From positions 35,890 through 99,889 of the forward strand of contig JAFDEF010000004.1 in assembly GCA_019310485.1 (NCBI GenBank): a stretch of DNA of 64,000 nt, given 5' to 3'. The stretch comes from Deltaproteobacteria bacterium (lineage in GTDB: Bacteria; Desulfobacterota; DSM-4660; Desulfatiglandales; HGW-15). This document shows, in pieces, positions 5,625-37,168 of this stretch. Position 1 is the stretch's first letter. Every line of letters starts with the position of its first letter. The translations under genes and the position numbers were made by a program. The notes under the pieces were generated by a model. It was not told the DNA's origin and ran no database searches. It saw nothing but the letters and a program-made list of their open reading frames with translations.

Positions 5625-5657
5625 GATGTGACCGGAAACAGAGGGGTAGAAGAAGTT

Positions 5658-17907: not shown

Positions 17908-17929
17908 TATATGTGTATATAGTATGTAG

Positions 17930-17958
17930 TTGTCGAGGACGCCTTGCGTCCTCGACAA
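17930..17958 (+). promoter_or_regulatory. Strong intercistronic stem-loop after the SBP gene (13-bp stem)
   Basis: TTGTCGAGGACGC ctt GCGTCCTCGACAA read directly. There is no clear U-tract. It could be an mRNA-stability element or partial terminator that raises SBP:permease stoichiometry. Confidence 0.5.
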
Positions 17959-18063
17959 TTGTTGCGTACTGCCATCAGCAGCGAATAAAGGGGCTCTACT
18001 CCCCATAGCCAATCAAGCCCTAGGACCGTCCTGGGGAGGGGCGTTTCCGTCCGCTTAGGTCGC

Positions 18064-18933: not shown

Positions 18934-18935
18934 GC

Positions 18936-20974: not shown

Positions 20975-20976
20975 TC

Positions 20977-21948: not shown

Positions 21949-21959
21949 CAGAAAAGGGA

Positions 21960-21980
21960 TTTGGGCCGCAAGGGCCCAAA
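21960..21980 (+). promoter_or_regulatory. Intercistronic GC-rich hairpin between the permease and the rdhA-like gene
   Basis: TTTGGGCC gcaag GGCCCAAA (8-bp stem), followed by GAGGAAG and the ATG at 21995. Confidence 0.4.
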
Positions 21981-21994
21981 GTAGAGGAAGCAAA

Positions 21995-23179
21995 ATGAAG
22001 AAGTTATCTCAACCCTATTACAAGAAATATATTACAAGCGAATTGAAACGTTTTGATGAAAGGCACACCGGATTCAGTCGAGCTGCTAAGCAGGGGGATA
22101 GGTATACGCAGATCTACAAAAACGGTGTCAAGAATATTGCAAGAAAGGAGCTCGGCAAGACCATCTTCGACCATTCCATGGCGGTGGCGTCAAAGAGCGT
22201 CGACCAAATCCTCCGTAAAACCGCTTATGCTAGGGAAGCAGTTCCGGCACAAAATAGAACTTTCCGCTTAAGGGATCCTGACCCTGTGGCCATGAGCAGG
22301 ATTGTCAAAGATGCGGGAAAGTGGTTCGGTGCTGATCTAGTAGGCGTGACCAAGCTCAATCGCTTATGGGTTTACACCCACTGGGGACTCCACAATGTTC
22401 GTTACACCAACGCGGCAAAAGAGGGAGACCCTGTGGATATTCCTTCACAGTATAAAAACGTTATAGTTATGGTTCACGAGATGGATTATGACGCGCTGGC
22501 CCGCAGTCCCCATCGAGAGCCCGCAACAAACATGGGGTATTCGCGGATGGCGTGGACAGCGACCATGCTAGCTACCTTCATCGGGGAACTTGGGTATGTT
22601 GCGATTCCATCAGGCAACGAGTTGGGGATCAATATCCCTTTTGCTGTGGATGCTGGATTGGGGGAAATGGGCCGTAACGGGCTTCTCATCACACGGGAGT
22701 TCGGACCGAGGGTGCGTATCAGCAAGGTTTTCACTGACCTGCCTCTAGCGCCCGATGCTCCCATTGACATCGGTGTTCAACGGTTTTGCGAGAAGTGTGG
22801 GCGTTGTGCCGAATCATGCCCTAGCCGAGCTATCATGTCCGGCGAAAGAACGGATAAGGCATGGGATGAGTCCAATTCGGAAGGTCTCCTTAAGTGGCCT
22901 GTTCGGGCTATGCGGTGTTTTGAATGGTGGGTGAAAAACGGCGGGGGATGTTCCGTGTGCATCCGGGTCTGTCCGTGGAATAAGCGTAACAACTTGATAC
23001 ACAAGTGCGTCAGGCAATTTGCGGAAAGGGATCTTTTCATCAAGCTTATCGTCCAGTTGGACAAGCTTGTAGGATTTGGTCGACAACGAAAAGAGCCGGG
23101 CTACGCCACTTGGCAGGATCCGTCTGTGACGCAGACAGGTCCCTCCCCAGAGAATGTTTTAGATGCCCATGGGTCATGA
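21995..23179 (+). CDS. Reductive dehalogenase (RdhA) family homologue, cytoplasmic type, paralogue 2
   Basis: ORF 21839..23179. I prefer the ATG at 21995 (MKKLSQPYYKKYITSELKRFDERHTGFSR), collinear with paralogue 1. FCEKCGRCAESCP ... CSVCIRVCPWNK. No TAT motif. Confidence 0.75.
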   Translation: MKKLSQPYYKKYITSELKRFDERHTGFSRAAKQGDRYTQIYKNGVKNIARKELGKTIFDHSMAVASKSVDQILRKTAYAREAVPAQNRTFRLRDPDPVAMSRIVKDAGKWFGADLVGVTKLNRLWVYTHWGLHNVRYTNAAKEGDPVDIPSQYKNVIVMVHEMDYDALARSPHREPATNMGYSRMAWTATMLATFIGELGYVAIPSGNELGINIPFAVDAGLGEMGRNGLLITREFGPRVRISKVFTDLPLAPDAPIDIGVQRFCEKCGRCAESCPSRAIMSGERTDKAWDESNSEGLLKWPVRAMRCFEWWVKNGGGCSVCIRVCPWNKRNNLIHKCVRQFAERDLFIKLIVQLDKLVGFGRQRKEPGYATWQDPSVTQTGPSPENVLDAHGS

Positions 23180-23309
23180 TGGGGGCCGAAAACCCAGGCT
23201 GACACTCGAATTTGAAAGAAAAGTTCTATGCCTGCAGAAAAACGTGGAATGAAGTATGATCTGGAGATTGACCTCGGATACCGATGATTATGAAAAGGAG
23301 AATATTATA

Positions 23310-24722
23310 ATGGAAAACAAAACAATTTTGTTGAAGGACGCGGACTTTGTGGTTAGGTACTCTTCCAGAGTAGATGCGTTCGCATCAGTGGTTATTCAAG
23401 GAAACTTGATCATCGAAGTGGGTGACAGCGAGGATCTCAAAGAGAAGTATCAATATGACGAGGTATACGATTGCAAGGGAAAGGTAGTCTTGCCAGGTTT
23501 AATTAACTCTCATACCCACTGTAATGAAACCATGATGAGAGGCTTGGGGCACCAGCTTAAGTTCCACGACTGGGTAGATAACGTTATCCTTCCCATCGGT
23601 GCCGCCATGGAAAACATGGATGAAAATTTGTATACATGTCTTGCCCAGATGACAGCCATGGAGGCGGTGGCCAGTGGTACCACGTCCATCATTGAACACA
23701 GTGTCAATTTTGGGAAAAGGCATGTATACACCATAGCGACAGCGTTGCAGGATTTTGGAATCAGAGGGGCTGTGGCCAAAGGGGCAGAGGATTTTTCGCC
23801 TCTGGACAGGGGCCACGTGGGCTCCATAGAGGAGGAGATCAGGGAGACGCAGGGATTCTTGGAGAGATGGAAAGTCCAGGGGAATGGCCTCATCAAGGCA
23901 TGGGTAGGGCCTTCGGGGATTGAGGGGAAGACCACGGGGGGATGTACTGGAGATCTGCTGAAGGAGCTTAAAAAGCTGGCGGATTCCTATGACACGCGGT
24001 ACCATACTCATTTAGCTGGAAATATCTGGGAGGTCGAGAATATTCGTAGGGAAAAAGGGATGGCCGGGAGTGTGGCCTTTGCAGATTCGCTGGGCATCCT
24101 GGATGAGAAGACTTCGCTTGCACACTGTATTTGGGTAAGTCATGGAGAGGATGAAATCCTAAGAAGGGCAAAGCCTCAGATTTGTCATTGTCCAAGCTGC
24201 AATCAAATCAATGGCCTTGGCATCATCCCATTGGTCGAGCTGCGCAAGCAGGGAACAGTTTGTGCAATTGGTACAGATGGGGCGCCCCAGAATGACTCCT
24301 TGGACATGTTTAGAGAGATGAGGCAGGCGGTCCTTTTGCAGAAGATCCGTGCCCTGGATCCAGACATCATGGGGCATCTTGATGCCTTTCAGATGGCTAC
24401 AGAGTCGGGCGCAAAGGTGCTAGGGATAGAAAACCTTGGCAAGATCGAACCGGGATATTTGGCCGATATCATTATCATCCAGCGTAAGGGAAACCTATTT
24501 CTTACGCCCATGTACGATCCTATCGATACCTTGGTCTATGCAGGCTCTGGAGGAAGAGACGTTGCCATGACAATGGTTAACGGCAGAGTGCTTTACAAAG
24601 ATGGGCAATTTAGGACGGTTGATGCGGAAAAGGTTATCTCCACGCTGAAGGAGGCAAGTAGCCTAATGCCGGTACCAGGGGATAGGTTTTCCTGTATTTA
24701 CAGCCCTGGGGCCGTGTTGTAG
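23310..24722 (+). CDS. Amidohydrolase-superfamily enzyme (ATZ/TRZ - SsnA - nucleobase deaminase-like)
   Basis: ATG at 23310 after AAAAGGAG. PGLINSHTHCNE (HxH metal ligands), YHTHLAG, HCIW, AIGTDGAPQND (Asp ligand). Confidence 0.8.
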   Translation: MENKTILLKDADFVVRYSSRVDAFASVVIQGNLIIEVGDSEDLKEKYQYDEVYDCKGKVVLPGLINSHTHCNETMMRGLGHQLKFHDWVDNVILPIGAAMENMDENLYTCLAQMTAMEAVASGTTSIIEHSVNFGKRHVYTIATALQDFGIRGAVAKGAEDFSPLDRGHVGSIEEEIRETQGFLERWKVQGNGLIKAWVGPSGIEGKTTGGCTGDLLKELKKLADSYDTRYHTHLAGNIWEVENIRREKGMAGSVAFADSLGILDEKTSLAHCIWVSHGEDEILRRAKPQICHCPSCNQINGLGIIPLVELRKQGTVCAIGTDGAPQNDSLDMFREMRQAVLLQKIRALDPDIMGHLDAFQMATESGAKVLGIENLGKIEPGYLADIIIIQRKGNLFLTPMYDPIDTLVYAGSGGRDVAMTMVNGRVLYKDGQFRTVDAEKVISTLKEASSLMPVPGDRFSCIYSPGAVL

Positions 24723-24980
24723 GCGAATGAGGGAAGCCCTGATAGGTATTGCCTTCAAAATCGGTTGGGATGAGATAGTTGTTGTCATTCAGTGTGATTC
24801 TGATAGCTTGAAGTTGACTGAGATCTCCCATCGGATCAGGCCATGAGGTCTTAACCCCGTTGTTGTCCACGCGGGCTTGAAGATCGAACTCCAGACGCAA
24901 GGCCAAGAAGCTGCCTACAATATGCCCTATACCGGACTCATCGCAGTGATGATAAATGGGGCGAACCTTCAGGATGGAAA

Positions 24981-26207
24981 GTGCTTTCTTTTCAGGAAGT
25001 CTCGGCCCTACCCCTGGTGGAGAATCCTGAAAAAAAAGTGAACAGGGCGCTGGATAACCCTATTGGTTCAGAGAAAATTGAAGAAATGGCCAGGCCGGGA
25101 ATGAAGGCCGTGGTGCTTTTCGATGACTGGCAGCGTCCCACCCCGGCTTACCTTGTTTTCCCCGAAATCCTTGGCAGGTTGAATGGGGCGGGGATACCTG
25201 ACAGCGACGTTACAGCGATCTGTGCACTTGAAACTCATCCGCCAATGTCACGCGAGGATATCCGCCGAAAAATAGGTAGAGTTTCTTACGAACGCCTCTT
25301 CCCACGGATTTTTAACCACGATGCTCGTTCTCCAGAAAACGTGGCCGTCGGCAAAAGTTCTTACGGCACCTTTGTCAGGGTTAACCCCTATGTCTTTGAG
25401 TCCGATTTAAGAATAGGTATCGGGACATGTGTTCCGCATCCCTGGGCTGGATTCGGAGGTGGCACAAAGCTTGTGATGCCTGGAGTTTGTGGGCAGGATA
25501 CAATAGCGCAGCACCACCTCAAATGGCTTCAGACCGGGGAAATAGGACCCGGGCGCATAGAGGGGAATCGGTTCCTGGAAGAACAGGAGGAAATAGCGGA
25601 AATAGTTGGCTTCGATTTCAAGATCGACTTCATTTTGAATGATGAGAAAGAGCCGGTAAAGATTTTTGCCGGAAATCCTGTAGAGGAACACAAAAAGGCA
25701 GCCATAGAGAGCTTGGAGTGCTGCAAGATTGATATTTCCGGCCAAAGCGATGTGAGCATTACTTCTGCATTTCCGCTCGAGAAGGGGTTACAATCTCTGA
25801 AAGGCCTGGGAACAGCAGTTAGGGCTACTAAAGTTGGAGGATACATTATCTGGATGGCGCCTCAGGAAGATGGGGAGAGATTGATTCCCATATGGGAAGA
25901 AGTGGCCAGTAAGAAGTCTGCCGCAGAGTACATGGAAGATCTTTTGTCAGGGAACTATCCACCAAAATGTGAACCACTTGGCATAAGCCTTTTAATTACT
26001 ATTCATTACCTGAAACAGATAACTAAGAAATTTTCGAGGATAGTACACGTTACCAAAGGTATCCCCATAAGGCTTGTTGAGGCAATGGGATTTTCATATG
26101 CAACTAGTATCGAAGAAGCGATCGATATTGTTCAAAAGGAAGTTCCTGAAGGTAATGTTTCAATTTTTCCTTCTGGTGGCAGCGTCTTCCCAGTCCTGAG
26201 CGATTAA
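24981..26207 (+). CDS. LarA-family (lactate racemase-like, nickel-pincer-nucleotide-dependent) racemase/epimerase homologue
   Basis: 408 aa. LDNPIGSEKIEEMARPG, FDDWQRPTP, ALETHPP and PHPWAGFGGGTKLVMPG align (from memory) with L. plantarum LarA LDNPIGSDKLEELARGK / SDHTRP / GFHRP(His108) / SHFFAGFSGGRK(His174, Lys184). GTG start. About 23 aa shorter at the N-terminus than that reference. Confidence 0.7.
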   Translation: MLSFQEVSALPLVENPEKKVNRALDNPIGSEKIEEMARPGMKAVVLFDDWQRPTPAYLVFPEILGRLNGAGIPDSDVTAICALETHPPMSREDIRRKIGRVSYERLFPRIFNHDARSPENVAVGKSSYGTFVRVNPYVFESDLRIGIGTCVPHPWAGFGGGTKLVMPGVCGQDTIAQHHLKWLQTGEIGPGRIEGNRFLEEQEEIAEIVGFDFKIDFILNDEKEPVKIFAGNPVEEHKKAAIESLECCKIDISGQSDVSITSAFPLEKGLQSLKGLGTAVRATKVGGYIIWMAPQEDGERLIPIWEEVASKKSAAEYMEDLLSGNYPPKCEPLGISLLITIHYLKQITKKFSRIVHVTKGIPIRLVEAMGFSYATSIEEAIDIVQKEVPEGNVSIFPSGGSVFPVLSD

Positions 26208-27106: not shown

Positions 27107-28585
27107 CTATTTTTCCCCTTTGGGCGTCTGCTTTTCGGGTTTGGTCACCTTTCCGGTAGTAAGATATTCGTGGATACTTTTTGCAGCCACCTTTCCGGCG
27201 CCCATGGCGGAGATCACCGTGGCTGCACCGGTTACAATATCCCCACCTGCAAACACTCCCTTTTTCGAGGTTTCAAGAGTATCCGGATCACACTCAAGTG
27301 TGCCCCAGCGTGTGGTCTTGAGATCAGGGGTAGTCATGGGAATAAGCGGGTTTGGGCGGTTTCCGAGAGCAGGGACCACAGTATCACAATCAATAATGAA
27401 CTCACTTCCCTTGATGGGTATGGGCCTGCGGCGACCCGAGGCGTCCGGCTCACCCAGCTTCATCTTTATGCATTCTATTGATTTAACCTTCCCTTTCTCG
27501 TCCCCTATGATGCGCACTGGATTTGTGAGAATCTTAATCTGCACGCCCTCTTCTTCTGCGTGGTGTATTTCCTCTGCACGGGCAGGCATTTCTGCCCGGC
27601 TTCGGCGGTAGACAATTATGGATTCAGCACCGAGGCGGAGAGCTGTGCGCGCTGAATCCATTGCCACGTTGCCGCCGCCGATTGTGATCACTTTCTTGCT
27701 TCTTATGGGGGCTGTCCCGTACTCGGGAAATCTGAAAGCCTTCATCAGGTTTGACCTTGTGAGGTACTCGTTGGCTGAGTATACACCAACAAGGTTTTCC
27801 CCGGGAATGTTCATGAAAATGGGCAGACCGGCCCCTGTACCAATAAATACTGCGTCAAACCCGTTTCTTAGAAGTTCATCAACAGTGTTTGCTTTGCCAA
27901 CCACGTAGTCGGTTTTTATCTCCACGCCGAGCTTTCTAAGGTAGTCTACTTCAAATCTCACAATCTCCTTGGGAAGCCGGAACTCGGGAATGCCGTATAC
28001 AAGTACCCCGCCCGGTTCATGAAGAGCCTCAAAAATCGTGACCTGGTGGCCGAGCTTGATAAGATCACCTGCCACTGTCAAACCCGCAGGCCCTGCGCCA
28101 ATGACCGCCACCTTTTTACCTGTGGGCTTGGAGATATCGGGCAGCTTGATTTTGCCGGCTGATCGTTCGAAGTCTGCTGCAAACCGCTCCAGCCGCCCGA
28201 TTGCAACCGGTTCACCCTTCTTTCCCAAGATGCACTTTGACTCGCACTGCGACTCTTGGGGACAAACACGGCCGGTAACAGCAGGAAGCGAATTCTGCTC
28301 CTTAAGTTTCCAGGCTGCCTCTATAAACTTCCCCTCCTCGATAAGTTTAATAAACTCAGGTATTCTTATGTTTACAGGACAGCCGGTCATGCAAAGAGGC
28401 TTCTTGCATTTGAGGCAGCGCTTTGCCTCGGTCAATGCAAGTTCTTCAGTGAAGCCGTAAGGCACTTCTTCAAAATTGTGTCTTCGCCTTCGTGGATCTT
28501 GCTCCGGCATTTTTTGCCGTGGAATTTTTTTTCTCTCTTTTGGGTCCATCTCTATTCCTGATTTGAAAGCGGTGTTAGAAGTCAA
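27107..28585 (-). CDS. NfnB / GltD-type NADPH-dependent FAD + 2x[4Fe-4S] oxidoreductase subunit
   Basis: 492 aa. EAKRCLKCKKPLCMTGCPV...TGRVCPQESQCESKCILG (GltD N-terminal clusters), VAVIGAGPAGLT, GGGNVAMD. It lies downstream of a protein carrying an NfnA domain. Confidence 0.85.
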   Translation of the reverse strand: MTSNTAFKSGIEMDPKERKKIPRQKMPEQDPRRRRHNFEEVPYGFTEELALTEAKRCLKCKKPLCMTGCPVNIRIPEFIKLIEEGKFIEAAWKLKEQNSLPAVTGRVCPQESQCESKCILGKKGEPVAIGRLERFAADFERSAGKIKLPDISKPTGKKVAVIGAGPAGLTVAGDLIKLGHQVTIFEALHEPGGVLVYGIPEFRLPKEIVRFEVDYLRKLGVEIKTDYVVGKANTVDELLRNGFDAVFIGTGAGLPIFMNIPGENLVGVYSANEYLTRSNLMKAFRFPEYGTAPIRSKKVITIGGGNVAMDSARTALRLGAESIIVYRRSRAEMPARAEEIHHAEEEGVQIKILTNPVRIIGDEKGKVKSIECIKMKLGEPDASGRRRPIPIKGSEFIIDCDTVVPALGNRPNPLIPMTTPDLKTTRWGTLECDPDTLETSKKGVFAGGDIVTGAATVISAMGAGKVAAKSIHEYLTTGKVTKPEKQTPKGEK

Positions 28586-28637
28586 CTGTTTCCATACAGA
28601 TTAGGCCCTTGCTTTTTGGACTTAGAGCTCGCTTTGC

Positions 28638-31163
28638 CTATCCTTTTGCTGTCAGGCAAGCATGGCCCGGCTCATGCATGGGGACAGGCTCCTGAGGCAT
28701 AGCCTCAATTTCTTCCGTTTTAAAGGCAGCCTGTCTTTGCATCAATTCGATCCAGTTGATTTTCAGTCCGTCAAGAAAGGGACCGTCGACGCAGGCAAAT
28801 TTCGTTGCTTCACCCACGCTGACTCTACACGCCCCGCACATGCCCGTGCCGTCAAGCATTAGAGGGTTCATGGCAGTCTGTGTGGGGATTCCATGTTTTT
28901 TAGCAAGCTCGGAGACAAGCATCATCATGAAAGTGCATCCAATGACATATGCCTGGTCTATCTTTTCCCCTCTTTGGATTAACATTTCAATAGCCTCTTG
29001 AACTCCCCCTTTCAATCCCTCTGAGCCGTCCTTGGTGACAATAACCAGTTCGTCACAGTTTGCCGATAGCCTGTCTTTCCAGTGAAGAAGGTAATGACTT
29101 GCAGCTTCCTCTATACATATGACCCTGTTGCCGGCCTGCTTCATGGCCCTGGCGATTGGGAGCATGGCTCCCACACCGTAACACCCTCCTGCGCAAACAA
29201 CCGTGCCGTATTTCTTGACATCAACGGGCTTGCCCAGTGGTCCTGTCAGGTGGGCTAGGTATTCTCCAGCACGGGTATTGGCAAGCTCGCGGCTTGACCT
29301 GCCGAGTTCCAAGGTGACCAGCGTGATTGTGCCGCTTTTGCGGTCAAAGTCGGATATGGTGTAAGGAATGCGCTCGGAGGTCCTGCCCACCATGGCAATG
29401 ACAAACTGTCCTGGTTGACATTTTTGGGCTATGACAGGTGCCTGGATAGTAACCATATGAGTATTTGGAACAATTTCAATTTTTTCAATTATTCGAAAAG
29501 GAGTTTCTTCGGCCTCCTCGCGCTCTTTTTTCTTTTCAATTTCCTCTGGGGGCATGAAAGCCTCCAATGCGCAAACGAGATCGCTCAAACGGTGACCGCG
29601 ATAGAATTGAGGAAGTGAGTCCACATGCTCAAGAGGAGATGGCTCTGGAGACAAAGGGGGTTCTTGGTCAATCGCCTTTCTTTTTTTCATTTCCTTCAAG
29701 ATTCCCCCTGTGGTCCTGAACCCGAATCCGGAAACCCCCATCTTTTTTGCTATGTCACAAACTATTTTCCAGTCAGGAAAGAGATTTTCCGGCGGGGTAG
29801 CTGCTGCTTTCAGGGTTTTCACTTTGCCCTGGGAGTTAAGGAAAGTTCCGTCTGTTTCAGCAAGGGCAGCAGCTGCCAGGAAGACATCAGCCGTTTTCTC
29901 CAGTCGTGACGGGAACAAATCGGCTACAATAATTGCCTCTAGCTTTTCAATTGAAATCGGGTCAATAAAATCACCCAGCGAGTAAAGGGCCTTAATTTTT
30001 CCCCTGTTTATTGCGTCGAGTACTGAAGCAGGCTGGATGAGTAATTTATCGCCATTAGCAGTGGCCAGGGCGAAGTTATCTGATTTCATTACCTCTTTTG
30101 TGAATTTCTTAAGAATGTATATCTCCTCTCTTGTGGCCCCTGAATGAGCAATAAGAGCAAATTGATCCCCTCTGTAAGCCTCAAGGATCCCGGCTGCCCG
30201 CTCAACCGCTTCTTTATAAGAAGCCTCTATGAGCCCATCTTCGATCCGAACCTGGTGTGAAAGTCGCCTTGCGGGATTGTTTAGAAGTTGGGGAAGCACA
30301 AAACGCCCTATTGCGCAGATCCTGGCTTCCCTGGAAAAAGCGCTCATGCTTGCGCCAATGGCTTTGCCATCCTTGATTTTGAAATTAAGCGAGCAGCCAA
30401 GTGGGCAAACCACGCATGTGGATTCTTGGACCCAGTCAGGAGCCCCATACCATTTGGCAAACCTGTCGGACATTGCCCCGGTAGGGCAGATGTCGACACA
30501 TGCCCCGCAAAAACGGCAATCTGTGTCCGTGTGGGGCCTGTTGAAAGCTGTGCCTATGCGGGCGTCTTTACCACGGTTAATAAAATCAATTGTGCCCTTT
30601 TCGTGGATCTTTTCGCAAATGCGGGCGCACCGGCCGCAAAGGATGCACAGGTTGTAGTCCCTGTCCATAAAGGGATCAATTTGCTCAACTTCGAGGTTTT
30701 TGTAAATGATTGGAACTTCCAGGTCATTAATTTCGTATTCATCGGCAAGCATTCTAAGCTCGCATGTGTCCCTGTTGCTGCAAAAAACGCACCGGGTCAC
30801 CTTTCCGGCTTTGAAGGAGCGGGGACGGTATTTTTCGCACGACTCGCGATGAAGACACACAAAGCAAGGGCTGGTATGGCCGCTTAGCATCAGTTTTATG
30901 ACGTTTTTTCGCAACTCTATGATTTCAGGTGATACAGTCTTTACGACCATGCCTTCAGCAGCGGGAGTCGTGCAGGACGTAGGATATCCACGCATTCCCT
31001 CGATTTCCACAATACATAACCGACACGCCCCATATGGCTCAAGGGCAGGGTGGGCACAAAGGGTGGGGATCTTGATACCTGCCTTTTGCGCGGCCTCAAG
31101 TACGGTGTCTCCTTCCTTGGCTTTTACCTTTCGGCCTTCTATAGTCAATTGAATCTCGGTCAT
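28638..31163 (-). CDS. Fusion protein: NuoG/HydA-N-terminal-like Fe-S module + truncated molybdopterin-oxidoreductase-like domain + C-terminal NfnA/PyrK-like FAD/[2Fe-2S] domain
   Basis: 841 aa. The N-terminal 2Fe-2S region is CAHPALEPYGACRLCIVEI...C. HTSPCFVCLHRESC is an H-x3-C-x2-C-x5-C motif. CILCGRCARIC and CRFCGACVDICP are further clusters, and CVVCPLGCSL is a Mo-bisPGD-type 4Fe-4S motif. An acidic linker follows. The C-terminal ...GGCYGVGAM...MLDGTGMCGACRVSVGEATKFACVDGPF is the NfnA/PyrK signature. Confidence 0.8.
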   Translation of the reverse strand: MTEIQLTIEGRKVKAKEGDTVLEAAQKAGIKIPTLCAHPALEPYGACRLCIVEIEGMRGYPTSCTTPAAEGMVVKTVSPEIIELRKNVIKLMLSGHTSPCFVCLHRESCEKYRPRSFKAGKVTRCVFCSNRDTCELRMLADEYEINDLEVPIIYKNLEVEQIDPFMDRDYNLCILCGRCARICEKIHEKGTIDFINRGKDARIGTAFNRPHTDTDCRFCGACVDICPTGAMSDRFAKWYGAPDWVQESTCVVCPLGCSLNFKIKDGKAIGASMSAFSREARICAIGRFVLPQLLNNPARRLSHQVRIEDGLIEASYKEAVERAAGILEAYRGDQFALIAHSGATREEIYILKKFTKEVMKSDNFALATANGDKLLIQPASVLDAINRGKIKALYSLGDFIDPISIEKLEAIIVADLFPSRLEKTADVFLAAAALAETDGTFLNSQGKVKTLKAAATPPENLFPDWKIVCDIAKKMGVSGFGFRTTGGILKEMKKRKAIDQEPPLSPEPSPLEHVDSLPQFYRGHRLSDLVCALEAFMPPEEIEKKKEREEAEETPFRIIEKIEIVPNTHMVTIQAPVIAQKCQPGQFVIAMVGRTSERIPYTISDFDRKSGTITLVTLELGRSSRELANTRAGEYLAHLTGPLGKPVDVKKYGTVVCAGGCYGVGAMLPIARAMKQAGNRVICIEEAASHYLLHWKDRLSANCDELVIVTKDGSEGLKGGVQEAIEMLIQRGEKIDQAYVIGCTFMMMLVSELAKKHGIPTQTAMNPLMLDGTGMCGACRVSVGEATKFACVDGPFLDGLKINWIELMQRQAAFKTEEIEAMPQEPVPMHEPGHACLTAKG

Positions 31164-31216
31164 AGCCCCTCATTCCTTTTAACTTGATAGCTTCCCACGG
31201 CTTGCTGCAGGAAGCT

Positions 31217-34200
31217 TCATTGCATCTCGAATTGAGTTTCCAGATCACATCTCAAGCATCTTTTGGCTTCCAGCATGGCCTGCTCTTCGGAAAGACTTTC
31301 TTCAACTTCTTCAAAGCTTTTGATGCGGTCATTTCTGTCCTTGCGAGGTATCTGTGGCCTTGCAAGTTGTTCAATTTCCTCATCCGTTAGCTCGACCGGT
31401 GGCACATATTCTGCGGGCCGAACGGGCTTGTAGTGCCGTACGACGGGGTTTCCCCTGAGATACTGGTGAATCCCTTTTGCCGCAAGCTTTCCGTGAAAGA
31501 TGGCTGTTACAACGTTTAGTGGACCGGTCACCACATCACCGCCGGCGAAGACGCCCTTTCTGTCACAGAGGTCTGTCTCTTCATCGACCACTATGGTTCC
31601 TTGTCTGCTAACTTTTAAGCCAGCGTCCTTTGAAAAGCTCAGATCAGATGTCTGACCGATGGCGACAATAACATTATCACATCCTACCATAAACTCGGAC
31701 CCAGGAATTGGCAACGGCCTTCGCCTGCCGCTTGCATCGGGCTCCCCTAGTTCCATCTTGATGCACTCTATGCCCCTGATTCCGTTCCCTTCAGGAACGA
31801 CTCGTTTGGGGGCGGTGAGGAACCTGACATCGATCCCTTCCTCCTCAAGCTGTTCCAGTTCTTCGGGCAGGGCTGGCATTTCTTCAAAGGAGCGTCTGTA
31901 AAGAATAAACACGCTTTTTACGCCAAGTCGAATAGCACATCGGGCAGAGTCAATGGCCACGTTGCCGCCGCCGACCACCGCCACCCTTTCTCCCAGATTG
32001 GGTTTTTTATTGAGATTGACATCCCTAAGGAACCTAACCCCTGGAATAACGGCCGGATTGTCAGCCCCCTCAATGGCTAGTTCCAAGGCCTTATGCGAGC
32101 CCGTCGCAATGAATACGGCTTTGTAAGCCTGATTGAAAAGATCTTCAATCGTGAAGTCTTTACCCAGTGTTTGATTTGCCCTTATCTCAACGCCGGTCTT
32201 TTTGATGTAATCTATTTCATAGTCAAGCACATCACGCGGCAGCCGGTATTCGGGGATGCCCACCGCTAGCATTCCTCCTAGGATAGGAAGGGCCTCGAAA
32301 ATGGTACATTGGTAGCCGGTTAGGGTGAGAAAATATGCGGCTGAAAGCCCTGCAGGTCCTGAGCCTATGATTGCTATTTTTTCTTTATACTTGGCTTCGG
32401 CCTTTCTGGGCTTGATGCCCTTTTTCATTTCATAATCCGCGGCAAAGCGCTTGAGAGCGCGGATTGCGATTGGATCACCATGCTTTCCAGCCTCACATTT
32501 TGTCTCGCAAGGGTGTGGGCAAACTCGTCCACATATGCCTGGAAGTGGATTCTCCTTGCGGATGACCCTGATAGCATCATCGAACTTTCCTTGCGCGATG
32601 TAGCCCACATAACAGGGTACATCCTGGTTTATGGGGCATGTATACTGGCATGGAGATGAAATGAGCCCTTTGCAAACGACGGCATCGCATGTTTTCCTTT
32701 TCAGGTGGTCTTCAAATTCATCTTTGAAATAGCGCAGCGCACTCAACACTGGGTTCGGAAGCGTCTGTCCAAGGCCGCACAAGGAACTTGATTGAACCGT
32801 ATGGCAAAGCTTTTCGAGTTTACCAATGTAACTCATATCGCCTTTGCCCTCAGTAATTTCAGTGACCATCCTTAGCAAGTGCTGAGAGCCCATCCTGCAA
32901 GGGACACACTTTCCACATGATTCAGTATGGGTGAATCCTAGAAAGTATTTGACAACATCCACTATGCAGGAATCCTCATCCATCACGATCATTCCGCCTG
33001 AGCCCATAATGGATCCAGCTTTGGCAAGTTCTTCATAGTCCACTCTTAAATTTGATAGTTCCGCGGGGATGCAACCGCCAGAAGGCCCCCCTGTTTGGAC
33101 AGCTTTGAATTTTTTGTGGTCTGGAATGCCCCCTCCGATATTGAATATGATATCTTCTATGCTGATGCCCATGGGGACCTCGATCAGGCCTGTACGATTG
33201 ATTTTGCCAGCCAAGGCAAAGGTCTTAGTGCCCTTGCTTGTTTCAGTGCCATAGGAGGCGAACCATTCGGGCCCTTTGTTCATGATTTCGGAGACGTTAG
33301 CAAGTGTTTCGACATTGTTAATATTCGTAGGTTTACCGTGAAGGCCGGCTTGGGCAGGGAAGGGCGGACGTGGCCTAGGCATTCCCCTTTTTCCTTCAAT
33401 AGAAGCCATAAGAGCCGTCTCCTCACCGCAAACAAATGCTCCAGCCCCCATCTTGATTTTTATCTCAAGATTGAAATCCGATCCCATGATATTATTGCCT
33501 AAGAATCTCAATTGTCTCATTTGGTTAATTGCGTTCCGAATTCGTTCGATTGCAAGAGGATATTCAGCGCGAACATAAACAATAGCCTGGCTTGCCCCAA
33601 TTGCATAAGCCCCTATGGTCAGCCCTTCTAAGACGGCATGGGGGTCGCTTTCAAGCACTGCCCGATCCATAAATGCCCCCGGGTCTCCTTCGTCGGCATT
33701 GCAAATCATGTACTTTATGTCGCTCTTTGACTTTCGAGCAAAGCTCCACTTAAGACCGGTTGGGAAACCTGCACCACCACGTCCGCGCAGACCAGAGGCC
33801 TTTATCTTCTCAATTACTTCTTCTGGTTTCATCTTGAGGGCTTTGTAAAGACCAGAATATCCACCTCTGGCCACGTAGTGATATACATTAGATGGGTCTA
33901 TAAGACCCGCATTTCTCAACACAACTCGAACCTGTGGATTGATCATGGGGAGGTCAGTGAACTTAGGAAGACCTTCAATATCTATTTCTCCAAAGGAGCA
34001 CAAAGCGTATTCAAAGCAGGGGCTTCCATTAAGGATGAAACCCTCTATAAGTTCAGGAATCATATCCTCATTTACTCCTTGATAAAGGACACGCCTGCCG
34101 TCAGGAAGCCCTATTTCAATATTTGGCTCCGAATAGCACATTCCCAGGCAGCCCACTCCGACTATGTCCGCCTGAAGATTACGTTTTTCGAGCTCCTGGC

Positions 34201-34336
34201 TAAATCGATGCCAAGCTCGCATCGCACCAGCAGCTCTTCCACATGTCGCTTCTCCAACCAATATTCTGGGTTTTTCAATCTGGTTGAATTTTTCCCACAG
34301 AACCTTTGCTTTTTGTTGTATCTCTTCGAAATTCAT
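31217..34336 (-). CDS. Fusion protein: NuoF/HydB-like (FMN, NADH-binding) + GltD/NfnB-like (FAD, NADPH-binding) domains
   Basis: 1039 aa. GLRGRGGAGFPTGLKWSF is the 51-kDa FMN site, and ESCGKCVPCR is the N3 cluster. The GltD-like half is GICGRVCPHPCETKCEAG, IAIIGSGPAGLSAA and GGGNVAIDSAR. The N-terminus is a thioredoxin-like 2Fe-2S-type region. Confidence 0.8.
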   Translation of the reverse strand: MNFEEIQQKAKVLWEKFNQIEKPRILVGEATCGRAAGAMRAWHRFSQELEKRNLQADIVGVGCLGMCYSEPNIEIGLPDGRRVLYQGVNEDMIPELIEGFILNGSPCFEYALCSFGEIDIEGLPKFTDLPMINPQVRVVLRNAGLIDPSNVYHYVARGGYSGLYKALKMKPEEVIEKIKASGLRGRGGAGFPTGLKWSFARKSKSDIKYMICNADEGDPGAFMDRAVLESDPHAVLEGLTIGAYAIGASQAIVYVRAEYPLAIERIRNAINQMRQLRFLGNNIMGSDFNLEIKIKMGAGAFVCGEETALMASIEGKRGMPRPRPPFPAQAGLHGKPTNINNVETLANVSEIMNKGPEWFASYGTETSKGTKTFALAGKINRTGLIEVPMGISIEDIIFNIGGGIPDHKKFKAVQTGGPSGGCIPAELSNLRVDYEELAKAGSIMGSGGMIVMDEDSCIVDVVKYFLGFTHTESCGKCVPCRMGSQHLLRMVTEITEGKGDMSYIGKLEKLCHTVQSSSLCGLGQTLPNPVLSALRYFKDEFEDHLKRKTCDAVVCKGLISSPCQYTCPINQDVPCYVGYIAQGKFDDAIRVIRKENPLPGICGRVCPHPCETKCEAGKHGDPIAIRALKRFAADYEMKKGIKPRKAEAKYKEKIAIIGSGPAGLSAAYFLTLTGYQCTIFEALPILGGMLAVGIPEYRLPRDVLDYEIDYIKKTGVEIRANQTLGKDFTIEDLFNQAYKAVFIATGSHKALELAIEGADNPAVIPGVRFLRDVNLNKKPNLGERVAVVGGGNVAIDSARCAIRLGVKSVFILYRRSFEEMPALPEELEQLEEEGIDVRFLTAPKRVVPEGNGIRGIECIKMELGEPDASGRRRPLPIPGSEFMVGCDNVIVAIGQTSDLSFSKDAGLKVSRQGTIVVDEETDLCDRKGVFAGGDVVTGPLNVVTAIFHGKLAAKGIHQYLRGNPVVRHYKPVRPAEYVPPVELTDEEIEQLARPQIPRKDRNDRIKSFEEVEESLSEEQAMLEAKRCLRCDLETQFEMQ

Positions 34337-34782
34337 TCCATCTCCTTTAAGAGCTGCTTGGTTTTCTGTGGCGTCATCCTGCCGTAGACTATATCATCAA
34401 CCACCACTATCGGGGAGAGTGCGCAAGACCCAAAGCATGCCACGCGCTCCAGGCTGAACTTGTAATCAGGAGTGGTTTCTCCAGGTTTAATGCCTATATA
34501 TTTTACCACCTCATTCATGATCCTTTGGCCACCCCGAACGTGGCAGGCTGTCCCTTGGCACACACGGACGATGTGGTCACCGGGCCTTGTAAACCTAAAC
34601 TGGGTATAAAAGGTTGCCACTCCGTAAATGCTACTCTGCGAAACTCGCAGATACTCAGAGATTCCCTTTACAGCATCTTCTGAAATATATCCGAGTTTTC
34701 CCTGAACATCCTGGAGGATCGGTATGAGGCTGTCGCGACTCCGATCATAAGACTGAAGCACTGTCTGCAATTCCTGCGTCAT
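34333..34782 (-). CDS. NuoE/HydC-like thioredoxin-fold [2Fe-2S] subunit
   Basis: 149 aa. VCQGTACHVRG ... CFGSCALSPIVVVD is the classic NuoE motif. Its stop overlaps the NuoF-fusion start by 4 nt. Confidence 0.9.
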   Translation of the reverse strand: MTQELQTVLQSYDRSRDSLIPILQDVQGKLGYISEDAVKGISEYLRVSQSSIYGVATFYTQFRFTRPGDHIVRVCQGTACHVRGGQRIMNEVVKYIGIKPGETTPDYKFSLERVACFGSCALSPIVVVDDIVYGRMTPQKTKQLLKEME

Positions 34783-35025
34783 TTCTTAGACCACCTGTCC
34801 TCGTTTTCATATAAATTCCCATAGCTTACAGCACCAAACACGGCTGAACACAGATTTGAAGCTTCTAATTCTTAAAATCACCCGCATCGGGGGAGCCCTC
34901 CAAGGCTCCAGATCCGCGTGAATTTATAGAAATTACGCACTACCGCTGTCAAGAGAAAACTACGGGAAAAAAGCGGATAGTGAAAGGTTTAGCTTCAATG
35001 ATGAAAACCGGGCGCGGCAAAGAAA

Positions 35026-35952
35026 TCAGGAGATGCTTCTCTGAGCGTAAGTTTCCTGGAGGGTTTTAACAAGGTGGGTCAGGGTGGAATTCACTGGAGT
35101 GGCTATCCCCCGGGCTTTTCCCTCCCGCACAATGGCTCCATTGATGAACTCGATTTCCGTCATTTTTTTGTTGAGTACGTCCTGGAGCATTGAGGCCACA
35201 TTGCCTGAAGTAGCCTGGCATACTTCAATTACGCGCCCGAGAGGATCTGAATAGGGGAGAGTGATTCCCTTGGTGCGCGCCACGGAAACTGCTTCATTGA
35301 CAGCTTGTTCCATAATGATTCTTGTACCGCTAAATTTTGGCAGTAAGCCGTTCTTAAGCCCTGTTATGGCTGCCAGGGCATTAATGCCCACATTTATGAT
35401 CAATTTACCCCAGATGAGGTTCTCGACATCTTCAATTGCCTTTGTCACAAAGCCCGCCTTGTTAAAGGCGTTTACAATCTTAGCCACAGCATTATCAGGA
35501 CCGTTTACCGGCCCAATCATGGTTTCCCCCTGGCCTGCGTGCCTGATGCTCCCAGGCCCCAAAACAGTGGCCCCCTCTGCTGTGACACCCCCTAGAATCC
35601 TTTGTTCATTAAAGATCTCCTGCAATATCTCAATATTTCCCACCCCATTTTGTAAGGTGAGGATCCTTGCCTTGGGTTCTATCCACGGCCTGAGGATTTG
35701 GGCAGCAGCAAGGGTATCGTAAGATTTGACGCATATAAGAACCACATCTGGCACAAGGGGAGGCTTGCCGGTATTTGTGCGCACCTTTACCCGGTATTCT
35801 CCTGTGACACCTTCAACCCTGATGCCCTTCTTGTTTATCTCTAATGCTCGTTCTTCGTGCTTGTCCTGGAGCACGACCTCAAAGCCCGCCATCTTGAGGC
35901 GAGCGGCAAAAAGGCATCCCATGGCCCCAGGGCCAACAATCAAAAAACGCAT
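35026..35952 (-). CDS. panE: 2-dehydropantoate 2-reductase
   Basis: I prefer the ATG at 35952 (MRFLIVGPGAMGCLFAARL, a Rossmann motif). ApbA/PanE-like length, about 308 aa. Adjacent to panB. Confidence 0.8.
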   Translation of the reverse strand: MRFLIVGPGAMGCLFAARLKMAGFEVVLQDKHEERALEINKKGIRVEGVTGEYRVKVRTNTGKPPLVPDVVLICVKSYDTLAAAQILRPWIEPKARILTLQNGVGNIEILQEIFNEQRILGGVTAEGATVLGPGSIRHAGQGETMIGPVNGPDNAVAKIVNAFNKAGFVTKAIEDVENLIWGKLIINVGINALAAITGLKNGLLPKFSGTRIIMEQAVNEAVSVARTKGITLPYSDPLGRVIEVCQATSGNVASMLQDVLNKKMTEIEFINGAIVREGKARGIATPVNSTLTHLVKTLQETYAQRSIS

Positions 35953-36049
35953 TTTCTTATCCCCTGTGTTGACCACATGGTTGTTCGTGCCTCTCCCCTT
36001 GAGCATGTTGCCAGGGGGCAAAAGGGAGGCGGGAGCGGGGCAAGTACAA

Positions 36050-36883
36050 TTAGATTTTTTCCGCCTCCTCCTGGCTCATGGAAAAAGTGTGCTCCGGCCC
36101 AGGGAAGGCGCCCGTTTCCAGATCGTTTTTATATTGGACCAGCGCTTCCTTTATCATGGGAGACAGATTAATATATTGCTTCACAAATTTCGGGGTGAAC
36201 CTTTCGAAAAGCCCCACCACGTCATGGTAAACCAGCACTTGGCCGTCGCAATCTTTTCCTCCGCCTATGCCGATTGTGGGGATCTTCAGCTCTTTTGTAA
36301 TGCGGGCTGCCAGAAGATCGGGAATGCATTCCATCACCACCATAAAAGCACCGGCCTGTTCTAGGTCCTTTGCTGACTGAACGAGCTTTCTAGCACTCTC
36401 AGCGTCTTTCCCTTGCACCTTGAAACCGCTCAGCATGGTGGCTGTTTGAGGTGTAAGCCCGATATGGGCGCAAACCGGTATACCGGCTTTTACAATTGCG
36501 CTTACGGTGGGAGCCACCTCGCTCCCCCCCTCAAGCTTTACTGAATCACAACCTGCTTCCTTGATGAATCTGCCGGCATTTTGAACAGCCTGTTCAAGAC
36601 TCACCTGGTAAGACATAAAAGGCATGTCTCCAATAACGAAGCTGCCTTTGACCGCCCGGCATACGGCTTTGCAATGGTGAATCATATCATCCATCGTGAC
36701 AGGCACTGTTGAGTCATATCCCAGCACCACCATACCGAGGGAATCTCCGACAAGTATGGTGTCAATCCCGGCTTCATCCACCAGCCTCGCTGTTGGATAG
36801 TCATATGCTGTCATCATGGAGATCTTTTGCCCCAATTCCTTTTTCTGAAGTAATTCCCCGATTGTGACCTTTTTTCTATCCAT
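36050..36883 (-). CDS. panB: 3-methyl-2-oxobutanoate hydroxymethyltransferase
   Basis: ATG at 36883 preceded by AGGAGG. MMTAYDYPTARLVDEAGIDTILVGDSLGMVVLGY is the canonical PanB signature. Confidence 0.92.
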   Translation of the reverse strand: MDRKKVTIGELLQKKELGQKISMMTAYDYPTARLVDEAGIDTILVGDSLGMVVLGYDSTVPVTMDDMIHHCKAVCRAVKGSFVIGDMPFMSYQVSLEQAVQNAGRFIKEAGCDSVKLEGGSEVAPTVSAIVKAGIPVCAHIGLTPQTATMLSGFKVQGKDAESARKLVQSAKDLEQAGAFMVVMECIPDLLAARITKELKIPTIGIGGGKDCDGQVLVYHDVVGLFERFTPKFVKQYINLSPMIKEALVQYKNDLETGAFPGPEHTFSMSQEEAEKI

Positions 36884-37168
36884 AATAGCCTCCTGGTCGC
36901 GCTCTAGGATGCGCAATTTGCTTGACTAAAAAGAATCTGTGCTTTTCATGCAAGACCAAAATCCCCTATATCTAAGGCTGATATCCAAGTCAACTAAAAC
37001 CTAAACTAAGCGTTTCAAATTTCGGCAAGTAAAACCAATTCCCCCTGATCTACCATCAAGCCAGTATGATCTATTTTCCTGGGCTTTGAACAAGCTGCAG
37101 GCGGGTAAAGAGATTTTGCCCAGGGTTTAAGGTTTATGCGCTTTTGGGCTGTTCAGGCGAAGCACGAT

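Follow-up and report, generated by a model that had tools for sequence, protein, structure and literature searches.

A four-gene operon uniting Bfu-type and Nfn-type parts in a candidate complex for NAD(H), NADP(H) and ferredoxin

Within a 64,000-nucleotide (nt) stretch of contig JAFDEF010000004.1 from a Deltaproteobacteria bacterium (the whole stretch is termed the window below), four minus-strand genes at positions 27107-34782 encode BfuC (NuoE-like), a BfuB (NuoF) core fused to a GltD-type NADPH module, a BfuA (NuoG-like) protein fused to an NfnA (NfnS) domain, and NfnL (NfnB). Judging from their sequences, these proteins very probably make up one complex that works on NAD(H), NADP(H) and ferredoxin and that is built from Bfu and Nfn parts. 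Nfn and Stn/NfnABC are two known links between the pools of NADH, NADPH and ferredoxin, and they are now treated as alternatives. We view the present locus as a third way of making this link, widespread but so far unannotated, that brings parts of Nfn and of Stn/NfnABC together in one complex.

We give about even odds to the fuller proposition that the operon encodes a soluble cytoplasmic iron-sulfur flavoprotein complex, dedicated to NAD(H), NADP(H) and ferredoxin, in which two bifurcation centres are coupled one after the other. The locus has no catalytic site beyond those for pyridine nucleotides and ferredoxin. The cofactors should amount to one flavin mononucleotide (FMN), three flavin adenine dinucleotides (FAD), at least three [2Fe-2S] clusters and at least nine [4Fe-4S] clusters. 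We infer bifurcation and physical association from two kinds of evidence, the signature motifs carried by the modules and the pattern in which the same genes occur fused or split among relatives.

Composition of the four proteins

The first-pass annotation of this DNA had read four minus-strand open reading frames (ORFs) here, and all four were recovered as described. Gene 1 (BfuC, 149 amino acids (aa); 34333..34782) is supported as an ORF and by a match to PF01257. It overlaps gene 2 (BfuB core plus GltD-type NADPH/FAD module, 1039 aa; 34336-31217) by 4 nt, as had been noted, and this ATGA overlap is directly preceded by an AAGGAG ribosome-binding site. Gene 3 (BfuA iron-sulfur domain, molybdenum-domain remnant and NfnA/NfnS domain, 841 aa; 31163-28638) follows after 53 nt. 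For gene 4 (NfnL; 27107..28549) the earlier reading holds in part. A separate NfnB protein is indeed encoded, but the proposed length of 492 aa and the gap of about 52 nt apply only if translation begins at the TTG at 28585. The start is most likely the ATG at 28549, which is preferred because it is preceded by AGGA and because the public annotation also calls a protein of 480 aa. With this start, the gap between genes 3 and 4 widens to 88 nt. Every domain that had been named in the four proteins was found again with Pfam and NCBIfam.

Together, BfuC and the BfuB core form what is predicted to be a flavobicluster of the HydABC/Stn type (B1-FMN-C1) that carries every published Bfu signature. 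BfuC matches PF01257 at 1e-49 and the NCBIfam NuoE model NF005722 at 151.7 bits, above its cutoff, and its [2Fe-2S] C1 site is formed by C75-x4-C80 and C116-x3-C120. The 1039-aa protein matches PF01512 (4e-48), PF10589 (1e-30), PF14691 (1e-27) and PF07992 (2e-37). Over its residues 24-560, the best matches in the PDB are bifurcating BfuB subunits with E values near 1e-200, namely the NfnB proteins of Thermococcus sibiricus (Tsib) and Caldicellulosiruptor saccharolyticus (Csac), NiFe-HydB of A. mobile, StnB of Sporomusa ovata and FeFe HydB proteins, whereas NuoF of complex I scores far lower.

The BfuB core itself (residues 151-557; 32666..33886, minus strand) is supported by these PDB matches and by the signatures of Schut et al. 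2022 (Suppl. Figs 9-10). In that study, 1,558 Bfu proteins are separated from non-bifurcating homologues by a B2 site made up of three Cys plus a His and by the motifs DEGDPGAFMDR and GAGAFVCGEETAL, the non-bifurcating NuoF homologues having ..EPG.F.DR and GAGAY instead of DEGDPGAFMDR and GAGAFVCGE. The protein from the window has the exact Bfu forms of both the NADH motif (DEGDPGAFMDR, 215-225) and the FMN motif (GAGAFVCGEETAL, 297-309). Its B1 [4Fe-4S] ligands are C474, C477, C480 and C520, and its B2 site (C457, H544, C550, C555) aligns with C438, H525, C531 and C536 of the A. mobile protein. These four B2 residues are invariant in 74 NuoF-GltD fusions. An exception within the wider family is the BfuB of an Opitutales locus (L012:6154-8001), from which the His-x5-Cys-x4-Cys part of the B2 site is missing.

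Preceding the core is a thioredoxin-like domain (residues 1-150; 33887..34336, minus strand), which was aligned to 9bov_B and 8oh5_B. It contains a B5-type site (C32, C63, C67, E70) whose pattern, in a residue-level alignment, is that of Csac NfnB and S. ovata StnB. In the Csac protein, three Cys and a Glu coordinate a Zn ion at B5 (PMC11829005). In the AlphaFold2 (AF2) model of the 1039-aa protein, the N-terminal half was superimposed by Foldseek on Csac NfnB (9bov_B) with a target-normalized template modelling score (TMt) of 0.96 and a root-mean-square deviation (rmsd) of 1.9 A. The AF2 models were confident, with a predicted local distance difference test score (pLDDT) of 87 and a predicted template modelling score (pTM) of 0.82 in one case, and a pLDDT of 90 and a pTM of 0.83 for the 1039-aa protein.

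The C-terminal part of the 1039-aa protein (residues 558-1039; 31220..32665, minus strand) had been described as a second GltD/NfnB-like module. It is of GltD type but is not NfnB-like, matching instead the NADPH module in the A subunit of Stn/NfnABC. The module is colinear with residues 100-575 of Csac NfnA (E 7e-125) and with residues 98-574 of StnC. It also ends in a circularly permuted EAKRCLRC tail that matches its Stn/NfnABC counterpart. Its two [4Fe-4S] sites are supplied by C563, C567, C575, C602, C606, C610, C614, C1027 and C1030, together with the lysine ligand K629. This lysine aligns with Lys170 of Csac NfnA, which is a ligand of cluster A7, and C567, C606 and C610 align with Cys108, Cys147 and Cys151. 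The FAD motif is GSGPAG (658-663), and the NADPH motifs are GGGNVA (789-794) and YRRS (813-816). In an alignment of the 74 fusions, K629, the FAD and NADPH motifs and the cluster cysteines are invariant, apart from C602, which is conserved in at least 90%, and C575, which is not among the conserved positions. The suggestion that a GltD-like module of the Stn kind is present is upheld by the colinearity, the permuted tail and the lysine ligand.

That this module is fused to NuoF was also read correctly, but it is not a simple addition, as it replaces the two-cluster ferredoxin-binding C-terminal domain of BfuB. In every characterised BfuB known to us, the B2 motif is followed by a ferredoxin-like domain with clusters B3 and B4, the docking site for ferredoxin. 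The 1039-aa protein has no CxxCxxCxxxC motif after the B2 site, and the GltD module begins at that point. Among the full-length BfuB relatives of 578-666 aa, two such motifs are present in all but one (L021, 578 aa, which has none). The exchange between ferredoxin-like domain and GltD module takes place at an identical junction, after the C-x4-C-(K/R)-x-L-(I/V) of BfuB, and the BfuB cores closest to the protein from the window (L003 with 79% identity and L002 with 74%) bear the ferredoxin-like domain. Of the Bfu-family sequence tests, the BfuBC core passes all except the one for the B3/B4 domain, which is replaced. Foldseek aligned 585-599 columns with BfuB chains that retain the C-terminal domain, versus 537 with the core. 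This weakly suggests that the iron-sulfur subdomain of the GltD module sits in that domain's place, and we do not rely on it.

NuoF-GltD fusions of about 1025-1040 aa (55% identical) also occur without NfnS and NfnL (L086:3373-6945, L088:4245-12871, L089:3843-11729). In Dehalococcoidia and other metagenome-assembled genomes (MAGs), they reside in clusters of the Wood-Ljungdahl type with methylenetetrahydrofolate reductase (MTHFR, MetF), DUF3786 or DUF5981, NuoE and an FdhA-like BfuA. Such clusters point to a second complex, likewise undescribed, that is served by the BfuB variant without a ferredoxin-binding domain. The NCBI record of one such protein (P0214, in L086/L087) is labelled just NuoF.

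In the 841-aa protein, BfuA is predicted to contribute a cluster chain, with one [2Fe-2S] site followed in number by four [4Fe-4S] sites, and to have lost its molybdenum site. The NuoG-like iron-sulfur domain (residues 1-290; 30294..31163, minus strand) matches PF13510 (4e-24), PF10588 and PF22117. It holds a [2Fe-2S] site (C36, C47, C50, C64), a His-type [4Fe-4S] site (H96, C100, C103 and C134), two ferredoxin-type [4Fe-4S] sites (C173-C183 and C216-C226) and a MopB-type [4Fe-4S] site (C250, C253, C257, C283). Across an alignment of 89 fusion sequences, all of these cysteines are invariant and His96 is conserved in at least 90%. Foldseek matches for this part are BfuA of NiFe-HydABCSL and NuoG, and the protein has the A1 [2Fe-2S] and at least A2-A4 [4Fe-4S] sites that mark Bfu family members.

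An insert of about 24 residues (108-134; 30762-30842) with invariant C109, C125 and C128 lies inside the His-x3-Cys-x2-Cys...Cys motif. This Cys triplet could hold an extra cluster or Zn, and AF2 confidence in the insert is low (pLDDT 51-81). A role as a bridging site specific to the NfnS domain of these loci was ruled out, given that the same insert is found in FdhA-type and GltD-fused relatives that have no such domain, while it is absent from a plain FdhA (L089).

Residues ~291-495 (29679..30293, minus strand) are a truncated molybdopterin-oxidoreductase remnant. The PF00384 match is limited to profile positions 251-353, the last third, over residues 382-474. In the Pfam search of the 841-aa protein PF01568 was absent, leaving no molybdenum-ligand region and no dinucleotide-binding domain IV. 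The first-pass annotation had seen no H-cluster and no intact molybdenum site, and both absences are upheld. In the AF2 model, the pLDDT of the remnant is above 90. Among relatives, the molybdenum domain of BfuA ranges from complete FdhA-like versions through degenerate forms to a remnant of about 200 residues, as here. Because the domain is truncated, a formate dehydrogenase function for this locus was rejected.

A linker follows (residues 496-555; 29499..29678, minus strand), defined from the 89-fusion alignment, with an LPxxYRGH motif (Y521-H524; 29592-29603) in which G523 is invariant and R522 and H524 are conserved in at least 90%. In fused and split proteins alike, every truncated molybdenum remnant is followed by a (Y/F)RG(H/x)x(I/L) tail (the (Y/F)RG tail ends the split BfuA proteins of L006, L007, L010, L014, L016, L023, L026 and L029), and it is not found in BfuA proteins with a complete molybdenum domain. 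This tail may be a docking element for the NfnS domain that comes next.

That domain (residues 556-841; 28641..29498, minus strand), which we designate NfnS*, was recognized by NCBIfam NF004862 (NfnA/sulfide-dehydrogenase-like; 323 bits over residues 556-822), by a PF10418 match in the 841-aa protein, and by similarity to Pyrococcus furiosus NfnI-S (5jca_S; E 3.5e-75), with which Foldseek gives a TMt of 0.90 and an rmsd of 2.2 A. It retains the FAD motif RIPYT (598-602) and the [2Fe-2S] ligands D771, C776, C779 and C791. Its nucleotide motifs are altered, reading GGCYGVG at 659-665 and, in the second motif, GC, such that Cys661 (29181-29183) replaces the third Gly of GGGVG(V/I)AP and Cys743 (28935-28937) replaces the Pro of GP. 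We take these to be the two NAD(P)H-binding motifs of the FNR/PyrK family. The clade consensus shifts from GGGVG(V/I)AP to GGC(Y/F)G(I/V)G(A/G) and from GP to GC. Both cysteines are present in 41 of 41 Bfu-linked sequences, accompanied by an aromatic residue at 662, versus none of 36 canonical NfnS sequences. The Cys661/Cys743 pair might reflect closing of the NAD site, or it might form a dithiol or metal site.

In a midpoint-rooted neighbour-joining tree (without bootstrap support), the NfnA domains that lie beside Bfu genes are monophyletic, and by these sequence comparisons NfnS* is a distinct clade that occurs only next to Bfu genes. Among the loci compared, L022 has the only Bfu-linked NfnS with the canonical motif and also the only complete FdhA-type molybdenum domain (PF00384 275 bits, PF01568 109 bits). 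Since these two features coincide in L022, loss of the molybdenum site appears to accompany the NfnS* state.

NfnL is by comparison entirely ordinary. It matches PF14691 (1e-42), PF07992 and TIGR01316 (624 bits versus a cutoff of 472), and it aligns over its full length with Thermotoga maritima NfnB (4ylf_B; E 1e-167). All Cys ligands of its two [4Fe-4S] sites are kept, as are the Glu ligand E121 in RLERF, the FAD motif GAGPAG (151-156) and the NADPH motifs GGGNVA (291-296) and YRRS (314-317). The NfnL proteins of Bfu-linked loci have no group-specific change and their motifs are indistinguishable from those of canonical NfnL, from which we conclude that the ferredoxin end of NfnL is intact. 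The earlier claim of a full NfnAB pair must be qualified accordingly: NfnB is canonical, but NfnA belongs to a distinct Bfu-linked clade in which both NAD(P) motifs are altered.

The possibility that the fusions result from assembly errors or missed stop codons was ruled out. Proteins identical to the 841-aa and 1039-aa products occur in at least five independent assemblies of MAGs or metagenomes (for example MBW1977002, MBW1667589, MBW1919291 and RLB29739), and full-length homologues are found in many phyla. Because identical proteins recur across independently assembled genomes, we regard the fusions as real. At 90% clustering, more than 100 clusters of full-length homologues exist for each fusion. 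At 50% clustering, only a few representatives of the NuoG-NfnA fusion are left, some of them about 1,050 aa in length and with a longer molybdenum domain.

Distribution and comparison with known systems

The architecture, which the first-pass annotation had put forward as a candidate new one, is not peculiar to this locus. We used an alignment of the 841-aa protein to scan 185,579 species genomes and mapped eight domains onto the ORFs of the resulting loci, which number at least 80. An ordered cluster of nuoE, nuoF, nuoG-like, nfnA and nfnB is present in more than 40 of them. The bacterial hosts include Desulfobacterota (among them Desulfobulbus and Syntrophorhabdus), Planctomycetota, Hydrogenedentota, Verrucomicrobiota/Kiritimatiellae, Fidelibacterota, Bacteroidales, Aminicenantes, Chloroflexi, WOR-3 and Bacillota, and the archaeal hosts are Methanothrix, Thermoplasmatota and Asgard lineages (Hod- and Thorarchaeota). 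Syntrophs and sulfate reducers are among the carriers. Public labels for family members are NuoE, NuoF, 'sulfide/dihydroorotate dehydrogenase-like' and 'glutamate synthase'.

The operon in the window is one variant of this multi-phylum family, in which either fusion can occur with or without the other. Both fusions are found in the window, in a Syntrophales relative and in a Hydrogenedentes MAG, as well as in Fidelibacterota and Kiritimatiellae as judged by shared contigs. Phycisphaerales and Sedimentisphaerales have the NuoF-GltD fusion only. The NuoG-NfnA fusion alone is found in Desulfobulbaceae, Opitutales and cultured Desulfonatronum (among them D. parangueonense and D. thiodismutans), the last of which carry the fused BfuA-NfnS* protein with an ordinary BfuB and make the family experimentally tractable. 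Neither fusion is present in the majority of the remaining loci. Where BfuA and NfnS* are encoded by split genes in other phyla, the two are always adjacent and often translationally coupled. By the Rosetta-stone argument, this fused/split pattern speaks strongly for BfuA and NfnA belonging to a single complex.

In Bacteroidales MAGs, the Bfu-nfnS*-nfnL genes are immediately followed downstream by a canonical nfnA-nfnB pair, with the GGGVG motif, that is encoded on the other strand (L016:13499-15874, L019:9797-12286, L020:12375-13844). Because the two systems adjoin in these loci, we take canonical NfnSL and Bfu-NfnS*L not to be redundant.

Domain and structure matches bear out the original observation that the locus unites Bfu/Stn parts with NfnAB parts. 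The closest characterised relatives are StnABC/NfnABC of S. ovata, Csac and Tsib (Nfn-Bfu, Type 1 Bfu). Shared with these enzymes are the BfuC and BfuB core (52-56% identity, TMt up to 0.96), the B1, B2 and B5-type sites, the Lys-ligated GltD-derived NADPH/FAD module with its permuted EAxRCLxC tail, a NuoG/Fdh-like BfuA with a remnant domain devoid of molybdenum, and the substrates NADH, NADPH and ferredoxin. However, the Stn module is inserted in BfuA (StnC) and the accompanying BfuB keeps its ferredoxin-binding two-cluster domain, whereas here the module is C-terminal on BfuB. Moreover, BfuA of the present locus bears an NfnS-type FAD/[2Fe-2S] domain and a fourth subunit, NfnL, is added, giving four flavins rather than two. 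Because its NADPH module is on the other subunit and two extra modules are present, we conclude that the locus does not encode a Stn/NfnABC enzyme.

Similarly, although the locus shares with NfnSL of T. maritima and P. furiosus NfnI a full-length NfnL with all Cys and Glu ligands, and an NfnS* of the same fold with RxPYT and an Asp plus three-Cys [2Fe-2S] site, the pair is not a free-standing heterodimer. NfnS is fused to BfuA or encoded beside it and its nucleotide motifs are altered, and for these reasons the locus is not a canonical NfnSL. None of the Nfn fusion patterns A-D (Liang et al. 2019) involves NuoG, and none fits this locus. Conversely, none of the twelve types in the Bfu classification includes NfnSL (Schut et al. 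2022). Fdh-Bfu enzymes, which have an FdhA-type BfuA with BfuBC (for example the FdhF2-HylABC types), are related in that the BfuA family grades into complete FdhA-like proteins with the same Cys-rich insert. They differ in that the Mo/W pterin domain here is only about 200 residues, with neither the ligand region nor domain IV, such that formate cannot be a substrate.

Two further systems offer precedents for parts of the arrangement. In class II benzoyl-CoA reductase (BCRII; BamB-I, Bam-Bfu), a HydBC-type module is serially connected to a second bifurcating flavin (bioRxiv 10.64898/2026.04.10.717634), and the likeness lies in a HydBC/Bfu-type module placed in series with a second, unrelated bifurcating flavoprotein. 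In that enzyme the second module is HdrA-type and the outputs are benzoyl-CoA and electron-transferring flavoprotein, whereas the one in the present locus is NfnSL-type, with pyridine nucleotides and ferredoxin as the sole substrates. NfnII/Xfn is an NfnSL paralogue in which the NAD(H) site of the small subunit is non-functional and the high-potential branch needs another partner. For P. furiosus NfnII, occlusion of the NAD site in this natural NfnS paralogue has been described (PMC12506544). The means differ, as NfnII is free-standing and occluded by a loop and an Arg, while NfnS* has two Cys and an aromatic residue and its partner is covalently attached. In open-access papers and bioRxiv, including the Stn papers, two cryo-EM papers on NfnABC and metagenome papers on syntrophs, we found no description of a Bfu plus NfnSL cluster, a NuoG-NfnA fusion or a NuoF-GltD fusion, an absence that is not proof but that agrees with the first-pass impression of a previously undescribed arrangement.

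Electron flow and competing explanations

The wiring that we favour, and that we offer as a tentative scheme falling somewhat short of probable, begins at NfnL. NADPH would reduce the FAD of NfnL (L-FAD), at which the electron pair would be bifurcated. The low-potential electron would pass through the two NfnL clusters to ferredoxin, at what would be the only remaining ferredoxin site of the complex. The high-potential electron would move by way of the [2Fe-2S] cluster and the FAD of NfnS* (S-FAD) into the BfuA chain and from there to B1-FMN-C1. S-FAD would act as a relay rather than as a dehydrogenase site, which is proposed because of the changes in its NAD pocket (Cys661 in place of Gly, Cys743 in place of Pro, and Tyr662 as well), and it would stand where the molybdopterin was in an Fdh-type ancestor. 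NAD+ would then be reduced at the FMN, and the C1 branch would lead to the fused GltD module and reduce NADP+ in place of ferredoxin. The whole scheme should be reversible, with a net reaction of 3 NADPH + NAD+ + 4 Fd(ox) <-> 3 NADP+ + NADH + 4 Fd(red), which would amount to a differently geared Nfn. Given physiological potentials of -280 mV for NADH, -380 mV for NADPH and -500 mV for ferredoxin (Schut et al.), arithmetic on this assumed wiring would balance ferredoxin at about -430 mV, versus -480 mV for canonical Nfn and Stn.

A bolder version of the idea, possible but in our estimation doubtful, is that of a serial double bifurcator or confurcator in which the NfnL FAD and the Bfu FMN/Fe-S sites lie on one path and yield a non-canonical NADPH:NADH:ferredoxin stoichiometry. 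If so, this ratio would be, for example, 3:1:4 in the present variant, and relatives whose BfuB is normal would have 4:1:6 or 4:3:2. This would give anaerobes several 'gears' for the exchange of reducing power, and the exchange of the BfuB C-terminal domain would be a gear-shift.

Several points weigh against the favoured scheme. Contact between S-FAD and the BfuA chain is assumed, and so is contact between C1 and the GltD clusters. NADPH would be both a substrate and a product, which is unusual and has no obvious physiological benefit. The Cys661/Cys743/Tyr662 combination might still let NAD(H) bind, or might create a different site. In the Hydrogenedentes NuoF-GltD protein (L008:4849-7977), the Lys cluster ligand is replaced by Ser. 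In addition, the domain arrangement of the 1039-aa protein is only loosely fixed, since four of its five AF2 models had lower scores (pLDDT 80-87).

The same parts could also be wired in the opposite direction. The low-potential [4Fe-4S] branch of NfnL would then feed BfuA, while NfnS* would still reduce NAD+ and the Bfu core would bifurcate a second time. The distal cluster is the natural electron exit of NfnSL, BfuA is a chain of clusters, and BCRII demonstrates that two such modules can be coupled serially. In relatives with a normal BfuB C-terminal domain, our own calculation from the potentials quoted above indicates that this route could deliver very low-potential ferredoxin, or a ferredoxin-sparing path to NADPH. 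At this locus, however, BfuB has the NADPH module and no ferredoxin port would remain, such that all that is left overall is NADPH + NAD+ -> NADP+ + NADH, a transhydrogenation that wastes energy. Furthermore, the part fused to BfuA is NfnS rather than NfnL, and the group-specific changes are in the nucleotide pocket of NfnS with none on NfnL. We therefore prefer the first wiring, because its opposite leaves no ferredoxin port and because the altered motifs sit in NfnS*, and we consider the opposite one improbable. Those same altered motifs invite the idea, which we give a slim chance, that Cys661 and Cys743 by S-FAD constitute a new active site at which the complex would reduce something other than NAD+. 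This site might be a redox-active dithiol, might bind a metal or cluster, or might accept a third substrate X of the kind proposed for NfnII/Xfn. The two cysteines co-vary perfectly in the usual nucleotide pocket, NfnSL homologues were first described as sulfide dehydrogenases, and in the literature the high-potential partner of NfnII is unidentified. Yet there is no further conserved Cys, no substrate-binding domain was found, no gene for an enzyme of such a substrate is conserved in the neighbourhoods of the relatives, and an electron partner is already supplied by the fusion to BfuA.

More sceptical explanations would deny either the single complex or its bifurcation. The operon might merely group two independent enzymes, a Stn-like Bfu and an ordinary NfnAB, with the fusion acting as a tether that transfers no electrons. 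The canonical appearance of NfnL would fit this, as would metagenome annotations that list NuoEF and Nfn separately, and L022, with its full FdhA and canonical NfnS motif, may be such a case. We find this very improbable for the operon in the window, because the fused/split pattern is conserved over many phyla, NfnS* is monophyletic and limited to Bfu-linked loci, and a canonical nfnSL already adjoins the cluster in Bacteroidales. Also, BfuA has no catalytic site of its own and its chain would lead nowhere without NfnS*L. Alternatively, bifurcation-type parts might have been assembled into a plain NAD(P)H:ferredoxin oxidoreductase, a diaphorase or an NADH/NADPH transhydrogenase that does not bifurcate. 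Such homologues of NuoEFG modules exist, and the hybrid has no obvious thermodynamic rationale. Against this stand the B2 site, DEGDPGAFMDR and GAGAF of BfuB, which set apart all of the Bfu proteins in Schut 2022, and the Glu-ligated cluster of NfnL, which is typical of bifurcating NfnL proteins, and we judge a non-bifurcating enzyme to be distinctly unlikely.

If the favoured scheme is true, the complex would be a second natural case, after class II benzoyl-CoA reductase, of serially wired bifurcation modules, and the ferredoxin port of the Bfu core would prove to be exchangeable for an NADPH port. Redox balances in metabolic reconstructions would also change, since these genes are now counted as 'Nfn' plus 'NuoEF' or as 'FdhA-HydBC'.

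Regulatory signals and genomic surroundings

A putative promoter, TTGACA-18 nt-TATAAA (34923..34952, minus strand), was read from the sequence about 140 nt before the ATG of gene 1, inside the 243-nt intergenic region upstream. It is not listed by our consensus scan because its -10 hexamer does not have the final T. Promoter and terminator consensus matches in the scan of the locus were not enriched relative to shuffled sequences, and an Rfam scan of the locus returned no match.

As for neighbouring genes, the flanks of the operon differ among relatives, and nothing consistent emerged from them as a clue to function. In the window, the next genes upstream on the same strand, 243 nt from the operon, are panE/apbA (NADPH-dependent ketopantoate reductase) and panB (35026-36916), with a major facilitator superfamily transporter further upstream. 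Any link between panE and NADPH supply is weak at best. In the Syntrophales relative with the same four-gene operon (L082:1817-6960), a divergent Ech/Mbh-like membrane complex and hypC/hypE are located immediately upstream. The membrane complex comprises Proton_antipo, NADHdh, Oxidored_q6, Complex1_30kDa/49kDa and 2x[4Fe-4S] components and is not conserved in the window. This flank hints at a ferredoxin-linked context. The Desulfonatronum operons are flanked by unrelated genes.

Elsewhere in the window, positions 16273-26207 hold an oligopeptide-type ABC transporter (family 5 solute-binding protein and permease), a 446-aa 4Fe-4S dicluster protein, an amidohydrolase and a LarA-like gene with a lactate racemase N-terminal domain. 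This region may be a catabolic island, apparently unrelated to the operon. Two paralogous large subunits of xanthine-dehydrogenase-family molybdoenzymes (Ald_Xan_dh_C, MoCoBD_1, MoCoBD_2) are encoded near each other at 5628-8030 and 10900-13212, and the ORFs of about 300 aa beside each of them may be the FAD and Fe-S subunits.

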